From Candidatus Thorarchaeota archaeon (GTDB lineage: Archaea > Asgardarchaeota > Thorarchaeia > Thorarchaeales > Thorarchaeaceae): a stretch of 18,930 bases of DNA. A model generated the notes under the pieces. It had not been told where the DNA came from and ran no database searches. It worked only from the letters and a program-made list of their open reading frames with translations. Below, piece after piece: positions 1 to 15,308 of the stretch. Made by a program: the position numbers and the translations under genes. The stretch is from the NCBI GenBank assembly GCA_048882385.1, contig JBHLRQ010000060.1:1-18930 (forward strand), written 5' to 3'. Each line of letters begins with the position of its first letter. The stretch's first letter is position 1.

Positions 1-3
1 GAA

Positions 4-546
4 CTACTGGTTCAGATACAGCTCAAGGTAAGATTCACGAATTGTCTGGGAGGCGTCCAGTCCAAGCTCATCCAGCATGGCAAAGATCTCGTTCTTTGTA
101 GTCTCTACGTCTTTGCCACTGGCGATTTGCTCTATCTCAAGAAATAACCCAACATCCTCAACCTCGTCGATACTGATTGTTGTCTTGGATAGACTGAAGA
201 ACTGTCGAGTCTTCGTGATTTTCACAACCTCTTTGAAACCAAGACCCTTGAGGATTAATACAATCTCATTTTCATTGTCGAGATTCACTGTGGATTCAAG
301 TCGCGTTTTCGTAGTGCTATCAATTCTTGGTCCCTTGTAGGTCAGTTCTACAGTGCCAACTGGCTGTCTATATCGCACCCTGAGTGCTTCATCTGTTTCC
401 TGAAATGTTCTACAAGGATGATCAAAATATGAGTCAATTTGAGTTTCTTTGTTGATTTTCTCTGCACCAAGCTTCAATATCCTGTCTTCCATTTCCTCAT
501 AGCTGGATATAGCAATCTTGACTTCAACCTCGTATGTATCACTCAT
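4..546 (-). CDS. cyaB: Class IV adenylate cyclase / CYTH-domain protein
   Basis: N-terminal ExExK motif (YEVEVK), plus QIDSYF, DEALRVR, LTYKGPR, GLFLEIE and C-terminal SYLELY. Start moved from 600 to the ATG at 546 (MSDTYEVEVK) because the ExExK motif normally lies at the N-terminus. Confidence 0.9.
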   Translation of the reverse strand: MSDTYEVEVKIAISSYEEMEDRILKLGAEKINKETQIDSYFDHPCRTFQETDEALRVRYRQPVGTVELTYKGPRIDSTTKTRLESTVNLDNENEIVLILKGLGFKEVVKITKTRQFFSLSKTTISIDEVEDVGLFLEIEQIASGKDVETTKNEIFAMLDELGLDASQTIRESYLELYLNQ

Positions 547-663
547 CAGGAACAACCTCGTCATGCTTGGTTCAGTCATTCCACTGTTAGGTGTTTCCAT
601 CAGATGAATGAGCCATAAGCCAAATAACGGCGTTGAATCATCTTGTGGAAGGCAGGTGTCAAT

Positions 664-1914
664 TTGTCAAAACTGAAGAGTATCAAATGTGCAAAGTGTG
701 GCAAGACCTATGATATATCGAACGTACCCTCCAATGATGGATGTGGAGGTAGAATAGATTTCGAGTTTGACCTTGAAACAATTAAAGACACCATTACGAA
801 AGAGAATCTATCAAAGAGGACTCCTGGACTCTGGAAATACTTTGAGTTGATGCCGCTTATTGATAAGAAGCACATAGTGACGCTTGGAGAGGGAGGAACC
901 CCTCTGGTAGATAGCAAGAGACTCTCAAAAGAATGGAAAATGAAGAATCTCTCACTCAAAATTGAAACTGTCAATCCATCAGGTTCTTTCAAAGACAGGC
1001 CGATCTGTGTGGGAGTCAGCAAGGCACTTGAAGATGGTGTCAAGACTGTTTCTGCTGCATCATCAGGAAACGCTGCTGCATCTATGTCGACTTATGCTGC
1101 AAGAGCTGGACTTCAGGCAGTTGTATTTGTACCTGAAGACGCTCCTAAAGGAAAACTGATTCATCTGAGAACCTTAGGTGCTAAGGTCTTCAGAGTGAAG
1201 AAGGTCCAAGAGGGAGTAGATCCAACTACGACATTACTCCTAGCAGCTTGCAAGGAGTTTGGTTGGACTCCTTCGCCTTCCTTTGGTCCTTTCAATGGTT
1301 TCCAATTTGAAGGAACCAAGTCGTTAGGATTTGAGATTGCAGAACAAACACAATGGAATCCACCAGATTGGATACTCTTTCCGACTGGGAGCGGAGGACT
1401 TATGGCAGGTACCATGAAAGGACTCTGGGAGTTTCAACAGATGGGATTGATAGATTGCCTACCTCGACCTGTTGTAGTGCAGCCAGAAGGATGTGCACCA
1501 ATTGTGAGAGCTTTCAAGGAAGAGCAGGAACCACTGAATATAGTACCTTGGGATTCGAACGAAACAGTAGCAGGAGGACTTGCAGATCCATTCCCCTGGG
1601 ATGGTGATGCGGCTCTTAGATATCTCAAATTGGCAAAAGGTGAAGCTATAGCAGTTTCAGATACTGCGATTGAGGAGTCACTTGTAGAACTTGGTAAATT
1701 TGAGGGTGTCTTCGCAGAACCTAGTGGAGTCGCAGCTCTTGCAGGATTGAAGCAACTTATGGACCAAGGAACCATCGATAGGTCTGACAGAGTGATTGTT
1801 CCTATTACAGGATCAGGTTTCAAGGACTTAGCCACACCAGACAGACTAACCCCTGAAGTGAAGCTGATTCCGCCAGAAACCTCAGAGCTCAAGAGAGCCT
1901 TGGAGAATTATTAG
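664..1914 (+). CDS. Threonine synthase-family PLP-dependent enzyme (fold type II) with an N-terminal Zn-ribbon-like segment
   Basis: Motifs LGEGGTPL, NPSGSFKDR (PLP lysine), SSGNA, PTGSGG, AEPSG and ITGSGFKD, plus N-terminal CAKC...GCGG. TTG start at 664 follows AGGTG at 654-658; the ORF track starts at 643. Confidence 0.85.
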   Translation: MSKLKSIKCAKCGKTYDISNVPSNDGCGGRIDFEFDLETIKDTITKENLSKRTPGLWKYFELMPLIDKKHIVTLGEGGTPLVDSKRLSKEWKMKNLSLKIETVNPSGSFKDRPICVGVSKALEDGVKTVSAASSGNAAASMSTYAARAGLQAVVFVPEDAPKGKLIHLRTLGAKVFRVKKVQEGVDPTTTLLLAACKEFGWTPSPSFGPFNGFQFEGTKSLGFEIAEQTQWNPPDWILFPTGSGGLMAGTMKGLWEFQQMGLIDCLPRPVVVQPEGCAPIVRAFKEEQEPLNIVPWDSNETVAGGLADPFPWDGDAALRYLKLAKGEAIAVSDTAIEESLVELGKFEGVFAEPSGVAALAGLKQLMDQGTIDRSDRVIVPITGSGFKDLATPDRLTPEVKLIPPETSELKRALENY

Positions 1915-1927
1915 TCAGGTGAGATGA

Positions 1928-2374
1928 TTGGAGAACATTGAAGAATACATGGAAGAAGCGATCAATGAAGCCAAGAAGGGACTAGAAGAGGGGGGAATAC
2001 CGATAGGTTCAGTTCTTGTCATCGATGGAAAGATTGTGGGAAGAGGTCACAATCAGCGAATACAGAAGGGCAGTGCAGTGCTGCATGCGGAAATGGACTG
2101 TTTGGAAAATGCTGGACGATTGACAGCCAAGGACTACAGAAATTCAGTTCTTTTTTCTACACTCTCTCCTTGTGATATGTGCAGTGGTGCTGTACTACTA
2201 TACGGGATACCAAAAGTGATTGTTGGAGAGAATGTCACTTTTCAAGGGCCCGAGGTGTATCTACGTAAGCGCGGTGTTGATGTAGTAGTTCTCAATGATG
2301 TTGAGTGCATAGAGATGATGAGGAAATTTATCGAGGAAAATCCGATTTTATGGAACGAAGATATAGGTGAGTAG
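1928..2374 (+). CDS. Zn-dependent cytosine/nucleoside deaminase, yeast Fcy1-like
   Basis: HAE and PCDMC zinc motifs, GGIPIG, GRGHN and C-terminal WNEDIGE. TTG start follows AGGTGA at 1917-1922. Confidence 0.88.
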   Translation: MENIEEYMEEAINEAKKGLEEGGIPIGSVLVIDGKIVGRGHNQRIQKGSAVLHAEMDCLENAGRLTAKDYRNSVLFSTLSPCDMCSGAVLLYGIPKVIVGENVTFQGPEVYLRKRGVDVVVLNDVECIEMMRKFIEENPILWNEDIGE

Positions 2375-2401
2375 ATAAAACAAAAGTTGGGGATGTTGAG
2401 A

Positions 2402-3385
2402 ATGTCAAAGAAGGAGATACGTAACAGAGCCAAGCAATTGGCTAAGGAGTACGGATATCTCCAGTACATGATAGAGCGCTATCTCGCCTTATGGGGAGAA
2501 GAAAAAACTCTGGAGTTTCTCGAAGCTTGTGACAAACCTGTTCGCACATCGATTCGAATCAACACTCTCAAATGTACAAAAGAGGAGGTTCTGCGGCGCC
2601 TGCAAGATAAATCAGTGATTGTTGATGAGATTCCATGGCTAGAACATGGATTTTTGGCCAATTTTCGAGATTCTTCTCCTGGAGCAATGTTAGAACATAT
2701 GCTTGGATACTACTACGTACAGGGAGTACCATCGATGACTGCAGTGGCAGTACTGGACCCACAGCCGGGCGAAACAATTCTTGATTTAGCTGCTGCGCCT
2801 GGAGGGAAGACAACCCACATCGGCCAAATGATGAATAACGACGGAATGGTCATTGCTATCGAGCAAGACCGACTACGGATGACCAGTCTCAAGAGCAACA
2901 TAATTCGGTGTGGAGTGACCAATTCATTAGTTCTACGGGGTGATGCGAGAAAACTTGACCAACTTGGTTTCGAGCCGGATAGAATTCTTCTCGATGCGCC
3001 TTGTTCAGGTGAAGGTCTGATACCTCTAGATCCTACGAGAAAGACTAGCAAGACCATGGCTGATATTAGATATTGTGCTACCAGAGAGGATGAAATGTTA
3101 GAAGCTGCTGTCAATGCTCTCTCTGATGGAGGTACAATCGTCTATTCCACCTGCTCAATTGCTCCTGAAGAAAATGAATACATTGTTGATGATATATTGA
3201 AGAGATACCCGGAGATAGAGATTGCTGAGATTCCTATTGATTTTGGAGTCTCAGGATATTCTGAACCTTATGGTGTTAAGTTGAATGATTCATTGATTCG
3301 CGCAAGACGCTTTCTCCCACACCTACATGGAACAGAGGGCTTTTTCATTTGTAAGATGGTGAAAACGGAGGGGAAGAATAAATGA
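2402..3385 (+). CDS. NOL1/NOP2/Sun (RsmB/RsmF) family RNA m5C methyltransferase
   Basis: DLAAAPGGKT (SAM binding), LDAPCSGEG (motif IV Cys), YSTCS (motif VI Cys), EENE and EGFFI. Start is uncertain (2387 TTG, 2393 ATG or 2402 ATG). Confidence 0.93.
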   Translation: MSKKEIRNRAKQLAKEYGYLQYMIERYLALWGEEKTLEFLEACDKPVRTSIRINTLKCTKEEVLRRLQDKSVIVDEIPWLEHGFLANFRDSSPGAMLEHMLGYYYVQGVPSMTAVAVLDPQPGETILDLAAAPGGKTTHIGQMMNNDGMVIAIEQDRLRMTSLKSNIIRCGVTNSLVLRGDARKLDQLGFEPDRILLDAPCSGEGLIPLDPTRKTSKTMADIRYCATREDEMLEAAVNALSDGGTIVYSTCSIAPEENEYIVDDILKRYPEIEIAEIPIDFGVSGYSEPYGVKLNDSLIRARRFLPHLHGTEGFFICKMVKTEGKNK

Positions 3386-3927
3386 CTCTAGAACTGGTTG
3401 ATCCTGTTGAATGGACATCCATTGCAGAACAGATCGATGATGAGTTTGGAACGGGAGTTACAAAAAGACTGTTAGGAACTCGTGTCCCCGTTGTTTTACC
3501 AAAAGAGGATACTAGGACATTCTTCCTTATACCTACTGAATGGATGTCAATTGTCACTGGGGAAGGTGGCGAAGAACTTGATATACAGTTTTTGGGGAAG
3601 GAACTCGGTTCAAAAGTTAAAGGCAGAATCAGAATGAGCCTCCAGATTCTTGGCGAACTAAAAGACCTGACTGATAATTTCATCATTGTCACAAAACACA
3701 GTGGAGAAGCATTCACCTATGGCAGGAGCATCCTCAAGGAGTCTGTTATCGAGTTGAGTCCAGAATTGAAGAGGGGTCAGAGAGTCCTAGTTCTGAACAA
3801 GGAACGTGAATGTCTTGGTATTGCCTCTCTTTCAATCGATGCATCAAGATTGAACCGTTTGAGCGGGGACAAACTAGTAGGGAAGAATCTCATTGATATC
3901 GGATGGTTCATTAGACGTCTTGGTTAG
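3382..3927 (+). CDS. NIP7-like pre-PUA/PUA-domain ribosome biogenesis protein
   Basis: C-terminal PUA signature (FTYGRSIL, GQRVLVLN...CLGIA, NLIDIGWFIR). ATGA overlap with the Nop2-family gene, a known archaeal pairing. Confidence 0.82.
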   Translation: MTLELVDPVEWTSIAEQIDDEFGTGVTKRLLGTRVPVVLPKEDTRTFFLIPTEWMSIVTGEGGEELDIQFLGKELGSKVKGRIRMSLQILGELKDLTDNFIIVTKHSGEAFTYGRSILKESVIELSPELKRGQRVLVLNKERECLGIASLSIDASRLNRLSGDKLVGKNLIDIGWFIRRLG

Positions 3928-4670
3928 ACAAACATGTCACTTGACCGGTCCGAGGACTCAATGGATTTGCGCATTTTCTCAAGTCTTTCGATTTCACGTG
4001 ATTCCTCAAGGAGCTGCTCTACATTTGCTCCAACACCGTAGACATCATTGATTTTCTCCAACATTGTTGCAGCAGATCGTGGATCTGGTCTTCCTCTAGT
4101 TGCATAGGTGAGTAGACCAATGGCAGGAGCGTTATGCATCTCCAGTTCAGCTAAGAACAGAGCTAATGGACCTGCTACAAAGAGTCCTTCTTCAAGAAGT
4201 GGAACGGCCCATTTTTTGAGTAAATCGCCATAAGCGGTAGTTGGAACGCATCGCATGTCTTCTTCATCTTCCTTGAAACTAGCATCTAGTCCACCAAGGA
4301 GTAGTGTTTCTGCGAACTTATTTTCAGCCACCCATGAGGCTAAGCGATCTATGAAGCCCCACTGTTCAGATTGATGCGGTTGAAAACGTGGGACAAGAAA
4401 GACCATCTTTTTTGGCTCATAGGAATACAATTCAAACGGAAGTACCAATCGTTCATTCTCCATTGACACGAAAAGGGGGAGCATGTCACTCTTGATGAAA
4501 CCTATTCGTTCCGCCTCAAGGGTTCTAGTCAGATGGGCTGTACTCAGAAAACCAACTTCACCCAGACCATGAAAACCACATATGAAAGTCGAACCTGGTT
4601 TTACCTTGAAATCTTTCTTCAGAATGATTTTGAAAGATGAATCAGTAGTAGCTACGAAAGCCATAATCAT
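3924..4670 (-). CDS. PAC2 family (proteasome assembly chaperone-like) protein
   Basis: GFHGLGEVG, LLGG, GPLAL and PDPRSAA motifs typical of archaeal PAC2-family proteins. Confidence 0.88.
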   Translation of the reverse strand: MIMAFVATTDSSFKIILKKDFKVKPGSTFICGFHGLGEVGFLSTAHLTRTLEAERIGFIKSDMLPLFVSMENERLVLPFELYSYEPKKMVFLVPRFQPHQSEQWGFIDRLASWVAENKFAETLLLGGLDASFKEDEEDMRCVPTTAYGDLLKKWAVPLLEEGLFVAGPLALFLAELEMHNAPAIGLLTYATRGRPDPRSAATMLEKINDVYGVGANVEQLLEESREIERLEKMRKSIESSDRSSDMFV

Positions 4671-4751
4671 TCACGCCTAATTGAGAGGGCAGAGATGGCT
4701 CAGCCTCTCGCTGTTGGGTCTATGATAGAATTTTGGTACTTGCTTTTGAGG

Positions 4752-4760
4752 CTTTATATG
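4752..4760 (-). promoter_or_regulatory. Candidate TATA box for the PAC2 gene
   Basis: Minus strand reads CATATAAAG about 80 nt upstream of the start codon, implying a leader of roughly 55-60 nt. Confidence 0.45.
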
Positions 4761-4870
4761 TGTCTACATAAGATTGGCATTGTAGAGCCAGTTATACACG
4801 GTTTAAGCGCATAGGATGAAGTCTGAAGAGTTGTGTATTTTTGGACCAGCTTTGCGTTATTTTGTCCAAG

Positions 4871-4924
4871 TACGCATAAAACTAATAGGATAAGATGATA
4901 TATCCTCATATAACCTTATGCGCA
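4871..4924. repeat. Nested imperfect inverted repeat immediately upstream of the pseudo-helicase gene
   Basis: CGCATAA (4873-4879) pairs with TTATGCG (4916-4922). Inner AGGATA (4887-4892) pairs with TATCCT (4901-4906). Confidence 0.55.
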
Positions 4925-4929
4925 TTTGA

Positions 4930-7146
4930 ATGACGGAGCGGGCTTATTTGAGCACTCTTAGGGAATTAGAACTCCAACAGGTTGCTCCCCGTTTGTTGGA
5001 GTTGCTCAGAAGACAGGGACTTGCCTCACTCAGTAGATTCCAGATTCTCGCAGTAAATCAAAGAATAATGAGAGGAAACAGCCAGCTCTTAGTGACCTAT
5101 GACTATGATGAAGCCTATCTTGTCGGTGAAATTGCACTATTGAATAGGGTTACCTCTGATCATCGTGCTCGCGCTATTGTGCTATGTCCCAATCCATACC
5201 AAGCCGATAAGAGATTCCAATCCATTAGCCAGAAAACAAGTCGACTTGGTATTCCCGCATCCCAGATTATTCGACGAAGAGATGCAACAAGGAGTACTCC
5301 ATCAGGAAGAGTAATTGTTGCGACTTTCAGATCTTTTGACATCGCTTCCAGAGTCAACCCAGAGATTCTCAAAGGTGTTGTTTTTGTTTTAATAGACAGG
5401 TTAGATCTGATTGGACAGCCAGGTATTGGAGCGAGTCTTGAAACGGTTCTAGTCACACTACTAAGTAAACCAAAGATCCAATATGTAGCAATATGCCCAC
5501 CTCTAGAAGATATTGATGAACTAAGCAGATGGCTCAATGCGGAGTACATTCAAGATCCAAAGACGGACGTGAAAGTCATCTTCAGCGTGAAGGCTGTTGA
5601 AGATTCTAGAGAATCGATTGCGGATTTGACACAGTTTGTGCAATCTCGTGAAGGACAGGTTTTGATTCTTTGCGCAAATATCGGCACAGCTGAAGATTTG
5701 GCACTTGAACTTTCAGGCTTTGATTCTAGGAAGGACTCAGCAATCCTTGATCTAAGACTCTCTCCGGAACATAGAGATGATCTCAGATATCTCTCAAGAG
5801 ATATCAAAGAGAAATACCCTCAGTGTAAAACTACAGAAAATCTAGCTAAAACGGTTTCAAGAGGTGTTGCATTCTTTCATGAAGGAGTGGGTATGACTCA
5901 GAGAAGAATCCTCTCGGACGCGTGGGAAGAGGGATTGCTGCCTGTAATCATCATGCCTACTAGATTTGCTATTGCGAGTGGTCTTAGGGCTACAGTAGTA
6001 TTCCTGATGGGTGTTTTCATGCAGGAGTTTGGAAAGGAGGTTTCACAAGAAGATGCTGTTACAATGTTATCAGAATGGCAACTCAGTGATGTCCTTGAAG
6101 CTGCGGGAAGAAGAGGGATAGACAATGAGGCATTTGGCATCGTTGTAGTGGATAGCGAATCAGAGAAAACCAGAGTTATTGCAAAGTTCTTCCAAAAGGA
6201 CTCAAAGGGCAATCTACAACCCAACCTTGGGGAAGTAGACAGTGTCATGGATGATCCTGAGAATGTTCAAGACTTGGTTCTCAGACAACTCTGCGGAAAA
6301 ACCGATGATGATGAGGACCCATTCTCAATTATAGACAGAACTTTGTGGGGGAGTAGTAGTCGCGCAATGGATTTGCAGCAAGTGGAAACACATGATGAGG
6401 CTGCTGTTGCCAGCCTATTAGCAATGCGTTCCACAAGATCGACAGTTGCAAGAGCCAAAGAGATTCCGAGTTCAAGTGTAAAACTTGTCTCAGTGAGACC
6501 TGACAAGATAGAAGGTCTAGTCCATAGTGGGAGTCGAGAGATCTGGCACTATGCAACATTGAGATCAAAGGATGGTGTTGCTTGTTCATGTGAATCATGG
6601 AAATATCAGGGAATAAGAAAACATAGGCTTTGCAAACATCTCGTTAAGTTTTCACAGTACGCACTAGATAATGAGGAATCGAAACCCTATGCAGCAGGAG
6701 TTATTCTTCAAGCCCTGCGGGGGCTTGAGATTTATAGCGATCTTGAATCGGACAAACTAATCATCCGTGATAGAGAAAGTACCAAATGTACAGATCTTGG
6801 AAAGAGCGTAGCAGTCTTAGGTGTGCCTGTAAAAGATGCAAAGAAAGTGATGCAGGCAATTGGTGATGAAAAGAGCGATTTGAAGTCAATACTTGAGAGC
6901 GTGGTATTAACACGGGCCAATGTGCCAAAGGATGTTGTGAAAGGGGTCTTGGATAGACTTCCAGCGAAGACGATAGAAGAGATTGTATGTGAAGAAGATA
7001 TGCCTGGTATTATTGAGAATTGTCTTGAGGAATTAGAATACATAAACTCGATACTCTTGAAGCTGATGATTGAAAAACACAAAGCACGAAACGAGAGTAA
7101 GAAACTCCATGACAATCTGTTGATGCTATTGGAGTCCATGCGGTAA
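4930..7146 (+). CDS. Hel308/Ski2-like SF2 helicase homologue with degenerate ATPase motifs and an internal SWIM zinc finger
   Basis: Colinear with Hel308 by eye (GLASLSRFQ Q-motif, GASLE, ELSRWLNA, GQVLIL, RGVAFFHEG, AGRRGID, TDLGKSVA). Motif I reads TYDYDEAY, motif II DRLD and motif III CPP. SWIM motif CSC-x13-CKH at nt 6583-6639. Confidence 0.85.
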   Translation: MTERAYLSTLRELELQQVAPRLLELLRRQGLASLSRFQILAVNQRIMRGNSQLLVTYDYDEAYLVGEIALLNRVTSDHRARAIVLCPNPYQADKRFQSISQKTSRLGIPASQIIRRRDATRSTPSGRVIVATFRSFDIASRVNPEILKGVVFVLIDRLDLIGQPGIGASLETVLVTLLSKPKIQYVAICPPLEDIDELSRWLNAEYIQDPKTDVKVIFSVKAVEDSRESIADLTQFVQSREGQVLILCANIGTAEDLALELSGFDSRKDSAILDLRLSPEHRDDLRYLSRDIKEKYPQCKTTENLAKTVSRGVAFFHEGVGMTQRRILSDAWEEGLLPVIIMPTRFAIASGLRATVVFLMGVFMQEFGKEVSQEDAVTMLSEWQLSDVLEAAGRRGIDNEAFGIVVVDSESEKTRVIAKFFQKDSKGNLQPNLGEVDSVMDDPENVQDLVLRQLCGKTDDDEDPFSIIDRTLWGSSSRAMDLQQVETHDEAAVASLLAMRSTRSTVARAKEIPSSSVKLVSVRPDKIEGLVHSGSREIWHYATLRSKDGVACSCESWKYQGIRKHRLCKHLVKFSQYALDNEESKPYAAGVILQALRGLEIYSDLESDKLIIRDRESTKCTDLGKSVAVLGVPVKDAKKVMQAIGDEKSDLKSILESVVLTRANVPKDVVKGVLDRLPAKTIEEIVCEEDMPGIIENCLEELEYINSILLKLMIEKHKARNESKKLHDNLLMLLESMR

Positions 7147-7196
7147 CATTTTTACGTCGGTTGACTTGTGGCGGCCTAGACTCAAGGGTGAGCCCC

Positions 7197-8342
7197 ATGA
7201 AATTGTTTGAACACGAGGCCAAGGACATTTTCAGAAACTTCAAGTTGCCGACTCCTCCAGGAGGTGTCGCTGAAACTCCAAAGGACGCAAAAGAACGCGC
7301 AGCAGAAGTTGGAAAACCAGTTGTTGTCAAGGCAATGGTTCTTGCAGGTAAGCGAGGAAAGGTGGGTGGAGTAAAGTTCGCGGATACTCCTGAAGAAGCA
7401 GAAAAGTGTGCTGAAGAGATTCTGAAGATGCGTATCAACGACCTCCCAGTAGAGGCGGTTCTCATTGAGGAAAAACTAGACATCGAGCAGGAAATCTACG
7501 CTGGAATCACAATTGACAGAAATGAACGCAAGTATGTTGTAATTGGTAGCGCAGCTGGTGGCATGTCAATAGAAGAACTTGCAGAAGAGAGTCCAGAGAA
7601 AATCATCAAAATGCATGTTGACCCAAGTCTTGGATTCCAACCATATGAAGCCAGACAGATGGCTATTGACATGGGATTTAGGGGTAAGCAGATTAACCAG
7701 CTTGGTAGCTTCTTTCTGAAACTTTGGCAGATTGTGGAAGCATTCGATGTTGAGCTCACAGAAATCAATCCATTGATTCTCACAAAGGATGGTAGGTTCT
7801 TCGCAGCAGATGCCAGACTCAATATCGACGATAACTCGCTCTACAGACATAAGGAAATCATCGAGAAACTCAAACGTGAACCTATTGAGCAGAATGAACG
7901 GGAAAGACTCGCTACAGAGAATGATATGGCCTATGTTGAACTCGATGGTAATATTGCATGCATTTGTAATGGTGCAGGTCTTACCATGGCTACCCTTGAC
8001 GCTGTGTCCCTCTATGGAGGAAAGGCAAGCACCTTTCTCGATCTTGGAGGAGGTGCAGATGCAGAAAGAGTTGAGAAAGGGATTGAAATTGCGCTGATGT
8101 ATCCCAATGTGAAGGCAATCCTCGTCAACATAATGGGAGGAATTACAAGATGTGATGAGGTCGCCAAAGGAATAGTATCTGCGAAAAACGATGGCGATAT
8201 CACAACTCCCATGGTTATTCGAATGGTAGGAACCAATGAAGAGGAGGGGCAAGAGATTCTGAAGACAGCTGGAATACCGTTCCTCAAGACAATGGAAGAG
8301 GCTGCTTCAAAGGTAGTAGAACTTGCAAAGGAGGCTATTTAG
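7197..8342 (+). CDS. sucC: Succinyl-CoA synthetase (ADP-forming) beta subunit
   Basis: MKLFEHEAK start, GKRGKVGGVK, EINPL, NGAGLTMATLD, FLDLGGGA, NIMGGITRCD and RMVGTN. ATG 7197 follows GGGTGAG. Confidence 0.96.
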   Translation: MKLFEHEAKDIFRNFKLPTPPGGVAETPKDAKERAAEVGKPVVVKAMVLAGKRGKVGGVKFADTPEEAEKCAEEILKMRINDLPVEAVLIEEKLDIEQEIYAGITIDRNERKYVVIGSAAGGMSIEELAEESPEKIIKMHVDPSLGFQPYEARQMAIDMGFRGKQINQLGSFFLKLWQIVEAFDVELTEINPLILTKDGRFFAADARLNIDDNSLYRHKEIIEKLKREPIEQNERERLATENDMAYVELDGNIACICNGAGLTMATLDAVSLYGGKASTFLDLGGGADAERVEKGIEIALMYPNVKAILVNIMGGITRCDEVAKGIVSAKNDGDITTPMVIRMVGTNEEEGQEILKTAGIPFLKTMEEAASKVVELAKEAI

Positions 8343-9212
8343 TTGGCAGTACTTGTAGACAAAGATACACGAGTGATAGTTCAAGGAATCACTGGCACAC
8401 AGGGAAAATATCACACGATATCCATGCTGAAATATGGTACAAAGATAGTTGCTGGGACATCACCTGGAAAATCAGGAGAAGAGGTCAATGGTGTGCCTGT
8501 TTATGATAGCGTTTCTGAAGCAAAAAAGACAGAAAACGCTACTGCATCAATAATCTTTGTTCCGGCACCTTTTGCAGGTGATGCTGCACTTGAAGCGATA
8601 GCCGCAGACTTGAATCCTGTTGTGATAATTACTGAACATGTTCCTGTAAAAGATGAAATTCGTGTAATTCATGCTGCAAAGCAAAAGGGGATTACCATTA
8701 TTGGCCCAAACACACCTGGAATCATTACGCCTGATGCAAAACAGAAAGTTGGGATAATGCCTGGACATGTATTTTCAGATGGTGATGTGGGTCTCATGTC
8801 GCGAAGTGGGACTCTAACATATGAGATTGCTGCAGGTATGACAAATGCAGGCATTGGAATCTCCACTGCAATTGGTCTTGGTGGAGACCCCTGTGTGGGT
8901 CTTACTACAATCGAGGCAGTCAAGCTTTTCAAAGAAGACAGGGATACTAAGGCGCTAGTCTTGGTTGGTGAAATTGGTGGCGATGCAGAAGAGAGAGCTG
9001 CAGCCTACATCAAAAAGGAGTACGATCTTCCAGTTGTTGGGTTCATAGCAGGCAGAACTGCACCTCCGGGAAAACGAATGGGTCATGCTGGCGCGATAAT
9101 CAGTGGCAGCTCCGGAACTGCAGCAGCAAAAATCAAAGCTCTGAATGAAGCCGGTATTGCAGTCGCAGACAAGCCAAGTGATGTTGCTAGACTCCTAAAA
9201 GAAGCTATTTGA
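8343..9212 (+). CDS. sucD: Succinyl-CoA synthetase alpha subunit
   Basis: VQGITG, IGPNTPG, SRSGTLTYE, GEIGG and RMGHAGA (phospho-His). TTG start follows GGAGG at 8330-8334. Confidence 0.96.
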   Translation: MAVLVDKDTRVIVQGITGTQGKYHTISMLKYGTKIVAGTSPGKSGEEVNGVPVYDSVSEAKKTENATASIIFVPAPFAGDAALEAIAADLNPVVIITEHVPVKDEIRVIHAAKQKGITIIGPNTPGIITPDAKQKVGIMPGHVFSDGDVGLMSRSGTLTYEIAAGMTNAGIGISTAIGLGGDPCVGLTTIEAVKLFKEDRDTKALVLVGEIGGDAEERAAAYIKKEYDLPVVGFIAGRTAPPGKRMGHAGAIISGSSGTAAAKIKALNEAGIAVADKPSDVARLLKEAI

Positions 9213-9232
9213 TTTGTGGAAAGAGCACAAGC

Positions 9233-9240
9233 TTTTAAAA
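9233..9240 (+). promoter_or_regulatory. Candidate TATA box for the rpl40e-tRNA-rpl38e unit
   Basis: TTTTAAAA about 76 nt upstream of the rpl40e ATG. Confidence 0.5.
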
Positions 9241-9315
9241 CACATCCCGGTTGGGAAGCCGAGCGGGCTAACTAGAGACTACTCTATTCGCCGTACATGA
9301 AATGAGGTTCAAGTG

Positions 9316-9474
9316 ATGCCAGTAGCTGACATCGAAAAACGTAGACTAGCACAGCACTACCTGCTGTATAAGTCCATATGCCGATACTGTGGAGCATCGA
9401 ATCCACTTAAGGCAAAGAAGTGCAGAAAGTGCAAGAACAAGGACCTCAGACCAAAGAGGCGTCAGAAGAAGTAA
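9316..9474 (+). CDS. rpl40e: Ribosomal protein eL40 (L40e), stand-alone; absent from the ORF track
   Basis: Manual translation: MPVADIEKRRLAQHYLLYKSICRYCGASNPLKAKKCRKCKNKDLRPKRRQKK (52 aa). It carries the ICxxCxAxN...CRKC...LRPK signature, and GAGGT lies upstream. Confidence 0.95.
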   Translation: MPVADIEKRRLAQHYLLYKSICRYCGASNPLKAKKCRKCKNKDLRPKRRQKK

Positions 9475-9500
9475 TCCTCTGGTTTAAAGGCCCTAGTTAC

Positions 9501-9623
9501 GGGCCGGTGGTCTAGCCCGGTTATGACGTCGCCTTCACAAATAGAGGCCAATTGACCATATTGGGAACTGACCTCTGTGGGAAGCGGCGAATATCACGAG
9601 TTCGAATCTCGTCCGGCCCACCA
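9501..9623 (+). tRNA. tRNA-Val(CAC) with a ~45-nt intron at 37/38 (9540-9584) and encoded CCA
   Basis: Acceptor stem GGGCCGG/CCGGCCC, D-arm GTCT...TGAC, anticodon stem TCGCC/GGCGA, spliced loop TT-CAC-A^C, T-arm ACGAG-TTCGAAT-CTCGT, discriminator A9620, CCA 9621-9623. The intron helix ATAGAGG/CCTCTGT forms a relaxed bulge-helix-bulge. Confidence 0.92.
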
Positions 9624-9653
9624 CCAAAACACAACAACAGAATGGTGCTAAAA

Positions 9654-9869
9654 ATGCCAAAACAGATCTATGATGTCGACAAATTCCTCGAGATGTCAGA
9701 GGATGCAGAAGAGTGCAGGGTCAAGAGAGGCAGTAATCAGGTCAAGCTGAAACTCCGAACAAAAACATACCTCTACACCATTGTTGTTGAACCGCAGAAA
9801 GCTGAAGAGATCATCCAGCAAGTCAAATGCCAAGTAGTAGAGGCCCGAAGTGGCGAAAAAGCGGCTTAA
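9654..9869 (+). CDS. rpl38e: Ribosomal protein eL38 (L38e)
   Basis: MPKQIYDVDKFL...VKLKLRTKTYLYTIVVE..KAE matches the eL38 pattern (MP..I.....FL...KFKVR..RYLYTL....KAE). The upstream part of the track ORF (9552-9653) overlaps the tRNA, so the start is ATG 9654 after GGTG. Confidence 0.9.
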   Translation: MPKQIYDVDKFLEMSEDAEECRVKRGSNQVKLKLRTKTYLYTIVVEPQKAEEIIQQVKCQVVEARSGEKAA

Positions 9870-11131
9870 ATCTTAACTTTATCGTTGATCTCTGGAACAT
9901 GCGCTACAAGTTTTCGTTTTTCTAGTTTCTCAGCTAAGGCGTCGCAAGATTCTGATTCTCCATGAATCACATAGAATTCGGGGTCTCCTGGAATTCTTGT
10001 GAGCATATCCAACATGGCTTTGGAATCGGAGTGTGAGGATAAGTGATGCTGACGGATATCTGCAGTCACCTCAAAGATCCTACCACCAACTGTGACTTTC
10101 TTAGTGGCAAGCATCTCGGCACCAGGTGTACCTGGAATTTGGTAACTAACAAGAACAATCGAATTCTTTGGATTATCATGCAGCATTTTGAAATAAAGAT
10201 GTGATGCCCCGCCCTTCAACATTCCTGCTGGAGAGATTATAATTCCACCCTTTTGAACTGCCTTAGTTCGGTCACGATTATCATTAATGACATGAGTTCG
10301 ACCAACAGCTCGTTGAAACGATTGAGGACTCTGAAGGTATTCTGGATGTTTCACAAGAACTTCATTGACAGCACGTGCCATCCCATCAATGTAAATTGGA
10401 TACTTACGTGGAAGTTCATGACGTTCCAGAATGCACATGATTTCTTGACTTCGACCCACAGCAAATGCTGGAATCAAAACAGTTCCACCACGTTCTAATG
10501 TTTCTATTATAGTGTCAATTAGGGCTATCTCAATATCTTCTCTTTTTGGGTTTACTCGACGAGCATACGTACTCTCAGTCACCACAACATCATGCTTTGG
10601 CAAGTTCTTTCTTGCACCAGGGTTCAACTGAGACTCGGTTGCATTGAAATCTCCAGTAAATAGAATTCGCTTTCCATTTACCCTGACTGAAACCATAGCA
10701 CTTCCTGGAATATGACCAGCATTGAACAAAGTCATCTCAAAGTGGTGACCTAGAGGAATTGTTTCCTCATAGGCAGTTGCTTGACTTTGTCTTCGGACCA
10801 ATGCAATATCCTTGCGGGTATAGGGTAGAGGACCTCTGGAGATGTTGAACATATCACGAAGCAACAGGATGCTTAAATCACGAGTAGCTGGAGTGCAGAA
10901 TAATGAAGCTTCACTCTTTGAAAGTATACCTGGAATACCACCCGAATGGTCAAGATGTGAATGGGTCAACCCTATACCTTGGAGTGTATCGGTCGGGACC
11001 ATATCAGGAAAAGAGGGAGGTTCAGTGAATTTCACTCCATAGTCCACTAATACACTCTCATCCTTTTGCTCTACCAAAAAGCCTGAACGACCAATCTCTC
11101 TACATGATCCAAGAAATGTGAGCTCTGCCAT
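9866..11131 (-). CDS. MBL-fold beta-CASP ribonuclease without KH domains (aCPSF2-like)
   Basis: FLGSCREIGRS, VDYG, THSHLDHSG, AGHIPGS, FTGDF, ESTY, PAFAVGRSQE, SSHSD and IHGE. Start set at ATG 11131 (MAELTFLG). Confidence 0.9.
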   Translation of the reverse strand: MAELTFLGSCREIGRSGFLVEQKDESVLVDYGVKFTEPPSFPDMVPTDTLQGIGLTHSHLDHSGGIPGILSKSEASLFCTPATRDLSILLLRDMFNISRGPLPYTRKDIALVRRQSQATAYEETIPLGHHFEMTLFNAGHIPGSAMVSVRVNGKRILFTGDFNATESQLNPGARKNLPKHDVVVTESTYARRVNPKREDIEIALIDTIIETLERGGTVLIPAFAVGRSQEIMCILERHELPRKYPIYIDGMARAVNEVLVKHPEYLQSPQSFQRAVGRTHVINDNRDRTKAVQKGGIIISPAGMLKGGASHLYFKMLHDNPKNSIVLVSYQIPGTPGAEMLATKKVTVGGRIFEVTADIRQHHLSSHSDSKAMLDMLTRIPGDPEFYVIHGESESCDALAEKLEKRKLVAHVPEINDKVKI

Positions 11132-11321
11132 TAATTTTTCTTCCTGAGCTGAGCCAATGAAAATCAAAGAAAAAGGTTTGGCAAAGCGCCATATCGTAGC
11201 TTAGTTGCCTCAAAGGAAAATTCTGCCATTATTTTTCTTTATTGAGAGAAACGAAATCTATATCAGACTGAGACCTATTCTGGTCTGTGATTGGCAACAG
11301 TAGTAGGCGGAGAGACTTCGG

Positions 11322-11654
11322 TTGACGGAGGAAAATACCGACGGAAAGTCGAGCAATAAGAAGACAGACCCTGAAGATTTGCAGGAAGATATGGATTGCA
11401 TTCTTGTGGGCAATAAGAATGTGATGTCATATGTGTTAGCCTGTGTGACCTTGTTTAACAAGGGTGCAGACGAAGTGATCATTAAGGCACGTGGCAGGTT
11501 AATCAGCAGAGCTGTAGATGTTGCAGAGATTACGCGTCACAGGTTCATTTCCGACCTCAAAGTGAAAAGCATAGAAATCGGAACTACCACTGTCCAAACG
11601 GACAAAGGTAGTGACTTGAATGTATCAACGATTGACATAACACTGTCCAGATAG
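11322..11654 (+). CDS. albA: DNA/RNA-binding protein Alba
   Basis: [33 protein letters not shown] and NVSTIDITL. Alternative start at ATG 11391. Confidence 0.95.
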
Positions 11655-11669
11655 ACGTATTCTCTGCTG

Positions 11670-11719
11670 TTCCTCGCCCGAAGCGCTGTCCTAACTGAGC
11701 CTTCGAAACTGGCGAGGAA
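11670..11719 (+). promoter_or_regulatory. Stable intergenic RNA hairpin covering the ribosome-binding site of the downstream gene
   Basis: TTCCTCGCC/GGCGAGGAA (9 bp), CGAAG/CTTCG (5 bp) and GCT/AGC (3 bp). GAGGA in the 3' arm lies 7 nt before ATG 11726. Confidence 0.6.
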
Positions 11720-11725
11720 AAATAG

Positions 11726-12310
11726 ATGCGACTACCTGTCTGTAACTTTGATCTGGAATCGGATATGCTTTGTACAAATTGTCAGGCAAGACTTGACAGA
11801 GGGGAGCTTAAACATTTTGACATTGAATTCAGCAAATGGATGCTTGAGAGAGAAAAATCCTATCCAAGCTTGGTGGACCTGACTCTACAGAGAGCTGCTA
11901 AAGTTGGAGACAGGCTCATTCTCGTGGTGAAGAAGAAGGGTAAGAGTCTCATTCTAAGTGAGGAGTCTCTAGTCAATGAGATGACTGAACAGTATGGGGA
12001 ACCAATGATAGTTGAAGGTCCAATAAAACTTCGAAAGGTTGTACGAGAATTCATACAACCTGCAAATGAGGTGGGAGTAAATAGTCTATATCTTCCTGAT
12101 GGCTCCAAGGAGAGTATCGTAATGCTTCGTGGAGAGGATCGGGAAAGAATATCTTATACAACAGATGAACTTCGACTCATTGTTTCTGCAGTAATGGGTG
12201 AGTCGGTTCTTTTCGAATATCAAGAGGACAGGATAAAGACTGAGAAAGAAGACGCAAAAACAGATGAATTTGATCAACGGATGGAAGAATTGGGCAAGAG
12301 AAGGTTTTAG
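11726..12310 (+). CDS. NusA2-like protein (N-terminal Zn finger plus degenerate KH domains)
   Basis: The N-terminus MRLPVCNFD...LCTNC..RL..GE...FDI resembles archaeal NusA-like KH proteins. P....GVN.LYLPDG matches the second KH-like domain, and the gene is adjacent to alba. Confidence 0.72.
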   Translation: MRLPVCNFDLESDMLCTNCQARLDRGELKHFDIEFSKWMLEREKSYPSLVDLTLQRAAKVGDRLILVVKKKGKSLILSEESLVNEMTEQYGEPMIVEGPIKLRKVVREFIQPANEVGVNSLYLPDGSKESIVMLRGEDRERISYTTDELRLIVSAVMGESVLFEYQEDRIKTEKEDAKTDEFDQRMEELGKRRF

Positions 12311-13647
12311 ACACGATTGATTGGGTGGTTTTTCATTATCTCACGCATCACGACTGTTGCGTATGAACCTTTCCTGAGACTAAACTTCACAAGCACTCCA
12401 TCTTCAGAAATGGATGATTCGATATCAGTCATGAGAATGGATGTCAGATGTAATCCACCGGGAGCATCTAATGCCTTCATCTTGGGATTCCTGAAATCTT
12501 GTAGTTGAGTTCCTTCATCGTTTAGAATCTGCTTTAAGATGCCTGTTTGTGAAGAAGGAGGTAATCTAGTAGCGTATCCTGGTATTGTAGATGCAAGTCC
12601 ATACTCACCAGACACCACCTGTTGTTCTCGTTCTTCAATAGTTGAATCAGTGACAAAAAGCCACGAGTCCCTCCCTGAGTGTGTTTCATCGAGCTTGATG
12701 AGAAAATCACCAACTTGAGGTCGGTTGATGGACATCCCCAATCTTGCGCGTTCACTAATCAAACGATTGAAGATATAGGACTGGAACGCATGAACCTGTA
12801 GAGTGAGCATCTTAGGAGGTATCTTCAGGATGGCCTTCTCGAACTCACCAGGGTGATTCAATAGGTATTTCATTACATCCTTTTCATAGTTGAGGTCTTG
12901 AGGGAACAAGTCGATAACATCCTCTGTTGGTATCAAGTCTTCTTCCAGTCGTATTCTCATGTCAGTAAGTTCATCGGACTCATATTCACTAGTGGTTGTT
13001 AACATAATTCGAACTGCGCTCTCGAAATCTCGCTGAACTAGAGCTTTACCGACAAGATGTGTATATGGTCGAGTCAGACCAAATCGCTGGATTCCAAAAT
13101 AGTTCAGAAGAGGTGTATTTTGGATTTCCATTATGACATCTAATGCAGAGTCACCTTCAGTGTCAATGTTTCGCAAAAGTATTGTGAATCGGTTACCCCA
13201 TAGGTCACCAATCTGTATTGGTTTGCGTGTGTAGCGAATATCTCGAATTGCTATTCGAGATAATTGGAGAGAGGGAAGTATTTCATCAGCACGAGATGGG
13301 ACACTCATGGTTTGAACTGTAATTGCTCTTTTATCCTTGAGACCAGCGTATGTCACATAATTCCGTGAAATTTTGAGTGATGCAGCCAGAATGTTAGATA
13401 TGTCCATCGTTGCAAGACCCATCTTTTGAACTGTGAAAGTCAAAAATCTTGAACGCTCTCCATCGATATTCTGAGGTGATCTTGCAGTAGTTTCCCAATT
13501 TTCGATGGAGAGAACTTGTTTTTCAGGTGTGATCTCTTGGACTATAAAGTCTTCAAAGCGGATCTTTAATTTCCCGCCAATTCCTTCTGATTTGGTAGAA
13601 TAAAGCTCCATCCCCAGTGATTTTTCAAGAGGATGTACTTCTTTCAT
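12307..13647 (-). CDS. truD: tRNA pseudouridine(13) synthase TruD
   Basis: EDFIVQE, YAGLKDKRAITVQ (catalytic Asp), GDLWGNRFTI, NYFGIQRFG, HAFQSYIFN and FSLRKGSYAT. Confidence 0.96.
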   Translation of the reverse strand: MKEVHPLEKSLGMELYSTKSEGIGGKLKIRFEDFIVQEITPEKQVLSIENWETTARSPQNIDGERSRFLTFTVQKMGLATMDISNILAASLKISRNYVTYAGLKDKRAITVQTMSVPSRADEILPSLQLSRIAIRDIRYTRKPIQIGDLWGNRFTILLRNIDTEGDSALDVIMEIQNTPLLNYFGIQRFGLTRPYTHLVGKALVQRDFESAVRIMLTTTSEYESDELTDMRIRLEEDLIPTEDVIDLFPQDLNYEKDVMKYLLNHPGEFEKAILKIPPKMLTLQVHAFQSYIFNRLISERARLGMSINRPQVGDFLIKLDETHSGRDSWLFVTDSTIEEREQQVVSGEYGLASTIPGYATRLPPSSQTGILKQILNDEGTQLQDFRNPKMKALDAPGGLHLTSILMTDIESSISEDGVLVKFSLRKGSYATVVMREIMKNHPINRV

Positions 13648-13656
13648 TTCTGTACC

Positions 13657-14025
13657 TCAGAGTAGCTTTAGTTCACCAGTCACTTCATCAATGATCTCTG
13701 TCTTTGCAGGACCAATGCCTAGAACAGTGATTGTTCCTGGAGGGAGTTCAGTCATACCTGCATCTCTAATTAGAGCATGAGGAAGGGTGTGGCTTACTGC
13801 TTGACGACGTAGCTCAAGTAGCTCCTCTTCAGATGCCACCTTGACTGCCACTTTCTTCTGTCCTTCACGTAGCCAAGCTCTCCAAACATCCTGATTATGC
13901 ACTCTTGCTTGCTCAGCTGCAGAAACAGACCCATGAGCAACTTGAACGGCAATCTTTCCTCTGCTCATATCAAGATCAGTCCGCACGGCAATAACCTGTT
14001 TGTATGTGAATATTCGGGATATCAA
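13657..14025 (-). CDS. pth2: Peptidyl-tRNA hydrolase Pth2
   Basis: YKQVIAVRTDLDMSRGKIAVQVAH, GQKKV, DAGMTEL, TVLGIGP and VTGELKLL. TTG start follows GAGGT. Confidence 0.96.
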   Translation of the reverse strand: MISRIFTYKQVIAVRTDLDMSRGKIAVQVAHGSVSAAEQARVHNQDVWRAWLREGQKKVAVKVASEEELLELRRQAVSHTLPHALIRDAGMTELPPGTITVLGIGPAKTEIIDEVTGELKLL

Positions 14026-14114
14026 ATGACAACCTCTCAGTGACTTGAACTTGTAGGTTCATCTTAGGGGAGAGTTAAAAACGTGCCCAAAGAACAGATA
14101 GTCTGGGTGTTTTA

Positions 14115-15308
14115 TTGAATCAAGAGGCTATCATTGTGGGTGGTGGTCCTGCAGGACTGCTTGCAGCTTCAAAGATAGCTGAGAATAATCATGATGTACT
14201 TTTATTGGAGGAACATCCAGAGATAGGAAAACCAGATCACTGTGCAGGTTTACTCAGTTCTTCTGGTCTAAAGTCACTGGGACTCAGAATCCCAGATGAT
14301 GTTATTCAAAATACAGTTTCAGGGGCTCGAATATACGCACCATCAGGTCATTCAATTCTAGTTGAGAGAGGTCAGCGTGAAGCATTTGTCATTGATAGAC
14401 AACGATTCGATTCTTGGTTAGCAGATGACGCCTTAAAAAAAGGCGTGGATATCATGACAAGTCGTAAGGTTTCTGGGATTGGTAGTTATGTGAATGGGAC
14501 ACGATCAATTCAAACTGACAGTCTAGAATACAATGCTTCGATTACTGTAATTGCTGAAGGTTCACGTTCAGTCCTCACAAAGATGATCGGATTATCCACG
14601 ATATCGAGGAGTAGCAAATTTCCAGCCTATCAGTACGAGGTAAAGGGGGTTGAAATAGAAGACGACCTAGTCGAGATGTTTTATGGGAGAAGAGTTGCTC
14701 CAGGCTTCTTCTCATGGATTATTCCCCTTGGAGAGGGAAGAGCACGAGTAGGATTAGCATCAAAGAACAAATCCAAGATAAGACTTGATGCAGCGATGAT
14801 GCATCATCCAGTAATCAGTAAAAAACTCAGGAATGTAAAGATAGAACGAGGAATGGGAGGAACAGTTCTAGTAGGTCGTCCAGTTTCAAAAATCTCAGGG
14901 GATGGAGCGGTCTCAGTTGGGGATGCTGCTGGAATGGTGAAAGCAACCACAGGAGGCGGTGTTATTATTGGTGGACTTACTGCTTTGGAGGCTGGAAAAA
15001 CAGCTAACGAAGCTCTTCAACGTGGAGATTCATCACGGAAATTACTATCCAGATATGACAAGAGTTGCAAGGCTCTGTATTATAGAGAGCTAGAAACCAT
15101 GTATCTGGCTCAAAGAGCACTCTCCTCACTCACTGACAAAGGGCTTGATTCAGTCATTAAAGATGCACATGAATTAGGATTACTAAGTATCGTGAAAAAA
15201 GAGGGTGATATGGACATGCAAGGGAGAGTGATTCGAAAGCTCATTTCAGACCCGCGTATGATGTTAGTGGGTCTGAAGGCTGTGAGATACATCAATCCAT
15301 TCCTTTAG
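14115..15308 (+). CDS. Geranylgeranyl reductase-family FAD-dependent oxidoreductase
   Basis: IVGGGPAG, PDHCAG, IDRQRFD, PGFFSWIIP and VGDAAG..KATTGGG. Confidence 0.88.
   Translation: MNQEAIIVGGGPAGLLAASKIAENNHDVLLLEEHPEIGKPDHCAGLLSSSGLKSLGLRIPDDVIQNTVSGARIYAPSGHSILVERGQREAFVIDRQRFDSWLADDALKKGVDIMTSRKVSGIGSYVNGTRSIQTDSLEYNASITVIAEGSRSVLTKMIGLSTISRSSKFPAYQYEVKGVEIEDDLVEMFYGRRVAPGFFSWIIPLGEGRARVGLASKNKSKIRLDAAMMHHPVISKKLRNVKIERGMGGTVLVGRPVSKISGDGAVSVGDAAGMVKATTGGGVIIGGLTALEAGKTANEALQRGDSSRKLLSRYDKSCKALYYRELETMYLAQRALSSLTDKGLDSVIKDAHELGLLSIVKKEGDMDMQGRVIRKLISDPRMMLVGLKAVRYINPFL

Follow-up and report, generated by a model that had tools for sequence, protein, structure and literature searches.

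A Hel308-like pseudo-helicase of Thorarchaeota with a SWIM-type module inside its winged-helix domain

A stop-free open reading frame (ORF) at 4930..7146 on the forward strand of an 18,930-nucleotide (nt) stretch of DNA, the window (Candidatus Thorarchaeota archaeon, assembly GCA_048882385.1, contig JBHLRQ010000060.1), was found to encode a Hel308-like protein of 738 amino acids (aa) with degenerate ATPase motifs and an internal SWIM module. This protein, called the pseudo-helicase below, is best read, at a probability of about 0.65, as a catalytically inactive paralogue within an Asgard subfamily of Hel308/Ski2-like proteins, which would act as an ATP-independent nucleic-acid-binding or adaptor protein. 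A preliminary description, made from the letters of the window, had already noted a zinc finger inserted into the winged-helix region of a pseudo-helicase and had tied it to the eukaryotic Shu recombination complex; the architecture is borne out by the analysis below, the Shu connection is not.

Results

A profile was built from 21 close orthologues and searched against the sequences of the PDB. Residues 16-426 matched Hjm (2zj2, E-value 2.4e-24) and Hel308 (2va8, 8.3e-24; also 2p6r). The NCBIfam matches were to Hel308-type models only, covering residues 16-434 at less than one tenth of the cut-offs (95.9 bits for an equivalog cut-off of 1216 in NF001308 and 81.8 for 1200 in NF040935). Neither Pfam DEAD nor Helicase_C had a match in the protein at E ≤ 1, and the one family found by Pfam was SWIM, below its cut-off. 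An AlphaFold2 model was computed from a 95-row alignment of 82 SWIM-bearing proteins and 13 canonical Hel308, with a predicted local distance difference test score (pLDDT) of 87.5 and a predicted template modelling (TM) score of 0.82. It replaced an earlier model from the 21 close orthologues only (pLDDT 64.3, SWIM region below 50). Upon a Foldseek search with the model, the best PDB match was Hjm (2zj5, E-value 2.1e-26, TM-score 0.67), followed by Hel308, the helicase domain of Pol theta, Mtr4 and Brr2.

The features of the gene described below all lie on the forward strand. The RecA1-like domain (residues 19-210, 4984..5559), delimited by the profile alignment to 2zj2/2va8, the model and Foldseek, carries degenerate motifs I, II and III. 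At the motif I position (residues 56-62, 5095..5115) TYDYDEA is found instead of PTASGKT, with Glu and Ala in place of the Walker A Lys and Thr, and at the motif II position (residues 156-159, 5395..5406) DRLD instead of DEIH, with Arg in place of the Walker B Glu. Motif III is changed from SAT to CPP. The RecA2-like domain (residues 211-432, 5560..6225), placed by the alignments and the model, has a motif VI reduced to AAGRRG; in the profile alignment ESAGRRG stands opposite GRAGRPG and the first Arg is gone.

These replacements are themselves fixed. Residues T56, D58, E61 and A62 and the stretch R157-L-D-L-I-G were invariant in the 21-row orthologue alignment, and D58, E61 and R157 were present in all 118 full-length sequences of the Thorarchaeota type (Thor-type). 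Among 120 orthologues, [DE]RLDLIG was found at motif II in 116 and GK[TS] at the motif I position in none, the eight matches to the latter pattern falling elsewhere in the proteins. Because motifs I and II are replaced, the ATPase of the pseudo-helicase is very probably dead, in agreement with the preliminary description.

The position of the insert was determined by alignment with five canonical Hel308, those of Thermococcus and Stygiolobus among them, and then in the 95-row alignment. The insert lies between the winged-helix helix ending in RTLW (canonical TFY/TLL) and the helix IYSDLESDKLI (canonical VYFLIENEFI), from which the chain passes to the wing and the TxLG hinge. The segment from the W473 column to that of L596 amounts to 100-204 residues in the SWIM-bearing proteins and to 7-12 in the 13 canonical Hel308. 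Beyond the insert, TDLGKSVA lines up with canonical TxLGxxxSxLYIDP, and G624 is invariant in 95/95 rows. The module is thus inserted and not appended, as had been supposed from the sequence. For the feature from the insert to the end of the gene, 6360..7146 had been proposed; the end holds, and the start lies about 10 nt past the RTLW codons (6339-6350), so that the feature runs from about 6339 to 7146.

For domains 3 and 4 an alignment with canonical Hel308 is possible, and the model shows both as helical; domain 3 is split by the insert and domain 4 is shorter. The N-terminal part of the winged-helix domain (residues 433-480, 6226..6369) contains model helices 443-455 and 466-480 and ends in DRTLWGSSS. 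It is followed by the inserted module (residues 481-584, 6370..6681), which is defined by a gap in 13/13 canonical Hel308, by its predicted secondary structure and by the lowest entropy in the protein. The C-terminal part of the winged-helix domain (residues 585-621, 6682..6792) comprises model helix 585-607 and a wing hairpin (611-613/618-620) and ends in C620-T.

The remaining ratchet-like domain 4 (residues 622-738, 6793..7143) has six helices by alignment and model. The chain ends 114 residues after G624, the corresponding number in canonical Hel308 being 210-252; domain 4 lacks about 45 residues and the helix-hairpin-helix domain 5 is absent altogether, which matches the figure of about 115 residues, the shortened ratchet domain and the absent helix-loop-helix domain given beforehand. 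Pfam Helicase_dom4_arc had no match in the pseudo-helicase, though it was matched in most of the active relatives described below. The ratchet-helix region is still recognisable, with PGIIENCLEELEY704INSILL aligned to canonical PGDL...W and Y704 invariant in the 21-row alignment. In Hel308 the canonical ratchet Trp has a role in base stacking.

Within the module, C552-S-C554 is encoded at 6583-6591 and C568-K-H570 at 6631-6639, with 13 residues in between, exactly as the translated ORF had been read in the preliminary description. The SWIM core (residues 549-573, 6574..6648), recognised by motif, Pfam match and orthologue conservation, reads G-V-A-C552-S-C554-ESWKYQGIRKHRL-C568-K-H570-LVK. A pattern of the type C.C.{5,45}C.H arose in 20 of 20000 residue shuffles of the protein. 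Pfam SWIM (PF04434) matched residues 551-572 with 14.0 bits and an E-value of 0.038, under the gathering cut-off of 19.6. The module, of about 100 aa, is larger than the 38-position Pfam model. The net charge of the spacer between CxC and CxH was +2 to +3 in 126/126 Thor-type sequences.

In the AlphaFold2 model a low-confidence linker (481-489) is followed by helices 490-499 and 503-510, then by four strands (517-523, 526-533, 538-545 and 549-552), CxC closing the last one, and by helices 555-564 and 569-580, CxH opening the second. The pLDDT is 76-96 from residue 491 onwards, and the strand-like character assigned earlier to the segments before CxC is thereby reproduced. In this model, strands before CxC and a helix starting at CxH form the layout expected of a SWIM finger. 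C552, C554, C568 and H570 would make up a putative zinc site, to judge from this secondary-structure layout.

For the conservation analysis, 120 orthologues were collected with search words from residues 1-500, which makes the set unbiased towards the SWIM motif. The exact CxC-x13-CxH signature was present in 118 of them. The two exceptions, P0030 and P0039, come from one contig and lack 31 aa in frame, by which the strands and the CxC half are lost while the remainder stays intact; natural variation or an error of assembly may account for this. In the 118 full-length Thor-type sequences the mean entropy of the SWIM module was 0.47-0.55 bits versus 0.98 overall, the lowest in the protein, and conservation is highest in the 30-residue windows beginning at 543-546.

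A separate scan of one genome per species yielded 62 loci at 44-82% identity. As SWIM peptide patterns were used to pick them, these loci are unusable for measuring SWIM conservation. Their titles name Thorarchaeota, Promethearchaeota or uncultured archaeon, and one is labelled Hermodarchaeota. In nearly all 62 species-level genomes the ORF is full-length and intact, with a divergent PAC2 gene upstream at 56/62 loci and sucC downstream at 61/62. Judged by these comparisons of sequence and gene order, the pseudo-helicase is a Thorarchaeota-wide, syntenic core gene under purifying selection.

The architecture extends beyond this class. An exhaustive HMMER search of 1.84 billion cluster representatives returned 756 matches, including, beyond the orthologues, full-length relatives at 19-27% identity with alignments running through the SWIM region. 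The CxC...CxH pattern was present in 43/150 representatives among the matches listed, 36 of them outside the Thor type. All 17 relatives inspected contained GK[TS], mostly with DExH, and had CxC...CxH at the same place. With the Hod-type protein P0128 as query, the pattern was found in 69/116 matches (the 68 proteins P0272-P0339 and P0357), which comprise every full-length match scoring above canonical Hel308. It was absent from the 46 canonical-type matches (0/46) and from one 462-aa fragment, which lacks the region. By pattern, 67 of the 69 SWIM-bearing matches have GK[TS] and DExx. The Baldrarchaeia protein P0140 as query gave 83 further matches, all with the pattern.

The columns of the four ligands hold C/C/C/H in 82/82 SWIM-bearing rows of the 95-row alignment and a gap in 13/13 canonical rows. 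This alignment shows positional homology of the insert and the four ligands throughout the subfamily. Contrary to the reading in the preliminary description, the module is thus not peculiar to the pseudo-helicase. Since the same insert and ligands occur in all SWIM-bearing relatives, and the non-Thor ones have GK[TS], the pseudo-helicase appears to have inherited its module. All organism names attached to these relatives are Asgard (Promethearchaeota, Lokiarchaeota, Hodarchaeota, Hermodarchaeota, Thorarchaeota, Njordarchaeota and Baldrarchaeia), some labels giving only sediment or subsurface metagenome. In the databases they are labelled 'DEAD/DEAH box helicase' or 'hypothetical protein' only.

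Pfam scans of 66 proteins in all were made at E limits of 1, 0.01 and 0.05. SWIM was above its cut-off in three positional homologues (P0140 with 27.7 bits, P0186 with 21.7 and P0135 with 21.5) and below it in six more relatives and the pseudo-helicase. As the score of the pseudo-helicase is below the cut-off and those of its positional homologues are above, its SWIM membership is one of transitive homology. The active relatives matched Pfam DEAD (17/17) and Helicase_C (16/17), most of them also Helicase_dom4_arc and several HHH_5. Their nearest NCBIfam models were those of Hel308, at 197-483 bits and all under the cut-offs, which the Thermococcus control P0353 passed with 1415 bits.

Upon comparison of the spacers, two classes could be distinguished. 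A short basic spacer (x7-14, net charge about +1 to +3) is found in the Baldr-, Hod- and Thor-type proteins and in proteins of about 730 aa, and a long acidic one (x19-20, mean charge -2.8, GFKNGISDNF...FEF) in the abundant Loki-type proteins of about 840 aa. Compared with the other members (P0140 of Baldrarchaeia, P0128 of Hod-type, P0292/P0310 of Loki-type), the pseudo-helicase has the same insert at the same place, the same four ligands and the same deletion in domain 4. It differs in that these relatives keep GK[TS], mostly DExH and in many cases domain 5 (HHH_5), and in its basic x13 spacer, the commonest type being acidic x19-20. Records named Thorarchaeota also contain the active type of about 840 aa (P0294 and P0338), with GK[TS], DEIH and CxC-x19-CxH. 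One SWIM-bearing member, P0184 (1100 aa), has an N-terminal extension matching SAP domains.

A tree was calculated under LG+G4 from 59 rows chosen from the 95 (10 Thor-type, 41 other SWIM-bearing and 8 canonical; 36 left out) and was rooted on canonical Hel308. The split between SWIM-bearing and canonical proteins had a support of 100 (starred), as had the Thor clade, which sits on a stem 1.61 substitutions per site long. This clade groups with the Hod-type proteins P0128/P0272/P0273, with P0133 and with P0135/P0139 at a Shimodaira-Hasegawa-like approximate likelihood ratio test (SH-aLRT) value of 90, not starred. The long stem and the simple model make its exact sister group uncertain. Whatever that group, the sequences point to an active, SWIM-bearing ancestor of the dead protein.

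The nearest non-Thor relatives share the short basic spacer. Motif II reads DETY in P0128, DDAQ in P0133, EECD in P0135 and DEFQ in P0139, and the second motif VI Arg is K or N in three of these four. From these motifs, the motor may already have been eroding before it was lost in the Thor clade.

The window is archaeal, with a G+C content of about 43%, and is rich in housekeeping genes according to a Pfam-type annotation of the 20 neighbouring ORFs. Besides the pseudo-helicase it contains genes for a CYTH protein, a pyridoxal phosphate (PLP) enzyme, dCMP deaminase, an RsmB/F-like methyltransferase, a UPF0113 PUA protein, PAC2, the beta and alpha subunits of succinyl-CoA ligase (sucC and sucD), L38e, a beta-CASP nuclease, Alba, TruD, PTH2, a geranylgeranyl reductase (GGR), Pus10, L21e, an Rpb4/Rpo4-like subunit, DUF655 and KsgA. 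The pseudo-helicase gene is divergent from PAC2 and is followed by the succinyl-CoA ligase genes. Its stop codon is separated by 14 nt from the start of sucC on the same strand (7146-7161), a distance of about 30-350 nt at other loci; judging by this spacing, the two may be co-transcribed. The ORF also has an alternative TTG start at 4948 (residue 7), where many orthologue records (MSTLREL...) and the ESM Atlas copy begin. On these grounds either 4930 or 4948 may be the start codon.

Upon comparison of positions 1-16717 of the window with the 62 loci, the order CYTH-PLP enzyme-(dCMP deaminase)-RsmB/F-PUA-PAC2-pseudo-helicase-sucC-sucD proved collinear across the Thorarchaeota species genomes, and it continues as L38e-betaCASP-Alba-orf194-TruD-PTH2-GGR-Pus10. 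The dCMP deaminase gene is present at 30/62 loci only. As the whole block of about 20 kb is collinear, the neighbourhood reflects vertical inheritance and indicates no specific partnership, and an operon-based guess at the function of the pseudo-helicase was dropped for this reason.

Two further observations were made in the block. An ORF of 194 aa (11726-12310, forward strand) has no Pfam family at E ≤ 0.001 and occupies the same position in 37/62 loci. At 9501-9620 (forward strand) an Rfam tRNA match of 51 bits was found and nothing was reported by ARAGORN; as the match spans 120 nt for a 71-position model, the tRNA probably contains an intron. It is overlapped by ORF 9552-9869, in which L38e homology starts at residue 36, so that the real L38e gene probably begins downstream of the tRNA.

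Discussion

We propose that the SWIM-bearing proteins form an Asgard subfamily of Hel308/Ski2-like helicases. Its hallmark would be a module of about 100-130 residues, ending in a CxC-xn-CxH zinc knuckle and sitting in winged-helix domain 3 between the third helix and the helix leading into the wing. The module of the active relatives probably makes an otherwise ordinary Hel308-type motor more specific for a substrate or partner. In the Thor clade, the changes from GKT to DEA, from DEIH to DRLD and from SAT to CPP, together with the loss of domain 5 and part of domain 4, would have left a protein that neither hydrolyses ATP nor translocates. The Hel308 scaffold, with its RecA folds, its winged helix and a ratchet helix bearing the aromatic Y704, might still hold a strand or a branched substrate. 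The presumably zinc-stabilised basic SWIM module, projecting from the winged-helix domain, would then supply the selected contact with DNA, RNA or a partner protein. The available part of a recent review describes the winged-helix domain as the substrate-recognition domain of Hel308 (PMC13623763).

Several points weigh against this proposal. The loss of ATPase activity is deduced from the motifs. Its own Pfam SWIM score of 14.0 bits is under the curated cut-off of 19.6, and the active subtype of about 840 aa, with the acidic x19-20 spacer, never matches Pfam SWIM at E ≤ 0.05. A search of the module (residues 501-592) against PDB sequences gave nothing significant, the best E-value being 0.38 and the listed matches being due to chance. 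The three top ESM Atlas clusters for residues 505-590 are called 'SWIM zinc finger' (scores 0.80-0.82), which is to be taken as a lead only. Spacer length and charge differ between the subtypes, so the surface of the module, and perhaps its role, is not uniform in the family. The branches that nest the Thor clade within the family are unstarred, in a quick tree under a simple model in which the stem is long, and the 62 loci, selected by SWIM peptides, say nothing on the conservation of the finger. Finally, the housekeeping block, being collinear as a whole, gives no specific functional hint.

Alternatively, the dead paralogue might regulate in trans, within the same cell, an active Hel308-like helicase that also bears SWIM, with SWIM and the winged helix as the interface. 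This would be analogous to Brr2, in which the inactive C-terminal cassette is regulatory for the active N-terminal cassette; a Ski2-like scaffold was retained there after unwinding was lost, fused in cis to the active cassette, with a Sec63 unit. The pseudo-helicase shares the Ski2-like scaffold, has Brr2 among its fold neighbours and keeps its whole scaffold under purifying selection, and the active type of about 840 aa also occurs in records named Thorarchaeota (P0294 and P0338). It has a gene of its own, however, and carries a SWIM insert; the dead and active genes are not neighbours, and their SWIM spacers differ strongly in length and charge. Such a role is conceivable but unlikely.

About equally unlikely is a non-enzymatic clamp on RNA or ribonucleoproteins in ribosome biogenesis, tRNA/rRNA modification or RNA surveillance, comparable to some Ski2-like proteins that have RNA as their substrate. 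The flanking genes could be cited for it (RsmB/F-like, UPF0113 PUA, L38e, beta-CASP, Alba, TruD, PTH2, Pus10, L21e, Rpo4-like and KsgA), in an order kept at up to 61/62 loci, as could Mtr4 and Brr2 among the fold neighbours. The collinearity of the block of about 20 kb across the class, however, makes this adjacency inherited rather than specific, the gene itself being divergent from PAC2 and followed by the succinyl-CoA ligase genes, and it is to the DNA helicases Hjm and Hel308 that the protein comes nearest in both sequence and fold.

According to the preliminary description, the SWIM module would make the protein an archaeal recombination mediator connected with how the eukaryotic Shu complex (SWS1/ZSWIM7, Shu2) arose. 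This is much less probable than the two preceding possibilities. The available text of PMC13623763 presents Hel308 and HELQ as recombination and repair helicases, and the accessible parts of PMC5727457 and PMC6316741 report that the SWIM domain of Shu2/SWS1 binds Rad51 paralogues. The x13 spacing lies inside the 'usual n = 6-16' for SWIM given in the part of PMC5727457 that could be consulted, where it is also stated, with credit to Godin et al. 2015, that Shu2 relatives reach into archaea. The likeness to Shu2/SWS1 (ZSWIM7) consists of the CxC..CxH zinc-type site and the sphere of recombination and repair (PMC5727457, same part).

The Shu2/SWS1 signature, in the portion of PMC6316741 available, is CXC..Xn..CXHXXA. 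Its Ala is missing from the pseudo-helicase: the residue three positions after the His is K in 124 and R in 2 of 126 Thor-type sequences, and Ala in 62/186 other family members. The module is embedded in a helicase scaffold of 738 aa, inherited from apparently active helicases, and does not form a small protein of its own that partners Rad51 paralogues. No RadA/Rad51-paralogue gene is present among the 20 neighbouring ORFs of the window or in the conserved synteny block, and no sequence match to Shu2 or to any SWIM structure was found in the PDB. A finger of about 35 residues is too short for a phylogeny to carry such a link. The connection to Shu/SWS1 thus receives no support here; a very distant one may exist.

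It is just as improbable that the protein is still an ATP-driven helicase with non-canonical motifs. RecA1 and RecA2 folds are predicted confidently (pLDDT mostly >90), and part of motif VI (AGRRG) is conserved, as are residues T132 and D137 of motif Ib. Against this stand the clade-wide fixed replacements of the Walker A Lys and Thr, the Walker B Glu, motif III and the first motif VI Arg, and the lack of any Pfam DEAD or Helicase_C match at E ≤ 1, yet found in the active relatives (17/17 and 16/17). That the gene is decaying without function, as the long stem (1.61) and the lost catalytic motifs might suggest, is hardly credible in view of intact ORFs in nearly all 62 species genomes at 44-82% identity, the fixed synteny and the many invariant columns, the replaced motifs included.

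The inactive paralogue that we favour can be set apart from the systems known so far. It resembles Hel308/Hjm (2zj2/2zj5/2zj8, 2va8, 2p6r) in its RecA1-RecA2 core, its TxLG hinge Gly and, as far as they can be aligned, its winged helix and ratchet-type domain, and it differs by destroyed motifs I-III, the SWIM insert of about 100 aa, a domain 4 about 45 residues short and the lack of domain 5. With Pfam SWIM (PF04434) it has in common the CxC-xn-CxH motif (n=13), the strands before CxC and the helix from CxH, whereas here the finger is an internal insertion, larger than the model, in the winged-helix domain of a Ski2-like protein. SWIM domains are usually found terminal to SNF2 ATPases, transposases or MEKK1; the 2002 work of Makarova, Aravind and Koonin is reportedly the reference for the finger. 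Canonical Hel308 has a five-domain architecture whose domain 5 is of the helix-hairpin-helix kind, as described in the accessible part of PMC13623763. ASH-Ski2, an archaeal Ski2-like type, has an N-terminal four-Cys finger, according to the available text of PMC10946056, while the pseudo-helicase has no Cys in its first 85 residues and no N-terminal extension, its zinc motif being internal.

The literature search, in which subscription journals were mostly outside coverage, returned no paper on SWIM with a Hel308, Ski2-like or Asgard helicase. In the available text of a 2024 survey of archaeal Ski2-like proteins with 27 Thorarchaeota genomes (PMC10946056) the word 'SWIM' does not occur, nor does it or 'PF04434' in one supplement. 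The accessible portion of the 2026 HELQ/Hel308 review (PMC13623763) contains neither term. An Asgard Hel308 subfamily with SWIM in the winged-helix domain, together with a dead paralogue throughout Thorarchaeota, is apparently undescribed, and as far as these searches show the subfamily has no characterised member.

Going further, a Thorarchaeota duplicate of the Asgard SWIM-Hel308 might have become a dedicated ATP-dead subunit, whose partner through the module would be the active enzyme or some other repair or RNA machinery. This is more speculative still, and somewhat less likely than regulation in trans or an RNA clamp as set out above. If true, it would offer an archaeal precedent, in trans, for eukaryotic pairs of active and inactive Ski2-like cassettes such as Brr2.

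Helicases of the Hel308/HELQ type have a central place in the DNA repair of archaea and eukaryotes, and those of Asgard archaea serve to trace where the eukaryotic enzymes came from. Genes such as the one described here should not be counted as ordinary Hel308 in comparative genomics. One class, Thorarchaeota, keeps a very probably dead copy whose best-conserved part is the zinc module, and a comparison of the protein with and without its motor would provide a handle on the role of the winged-helix domain in this class of helicases.

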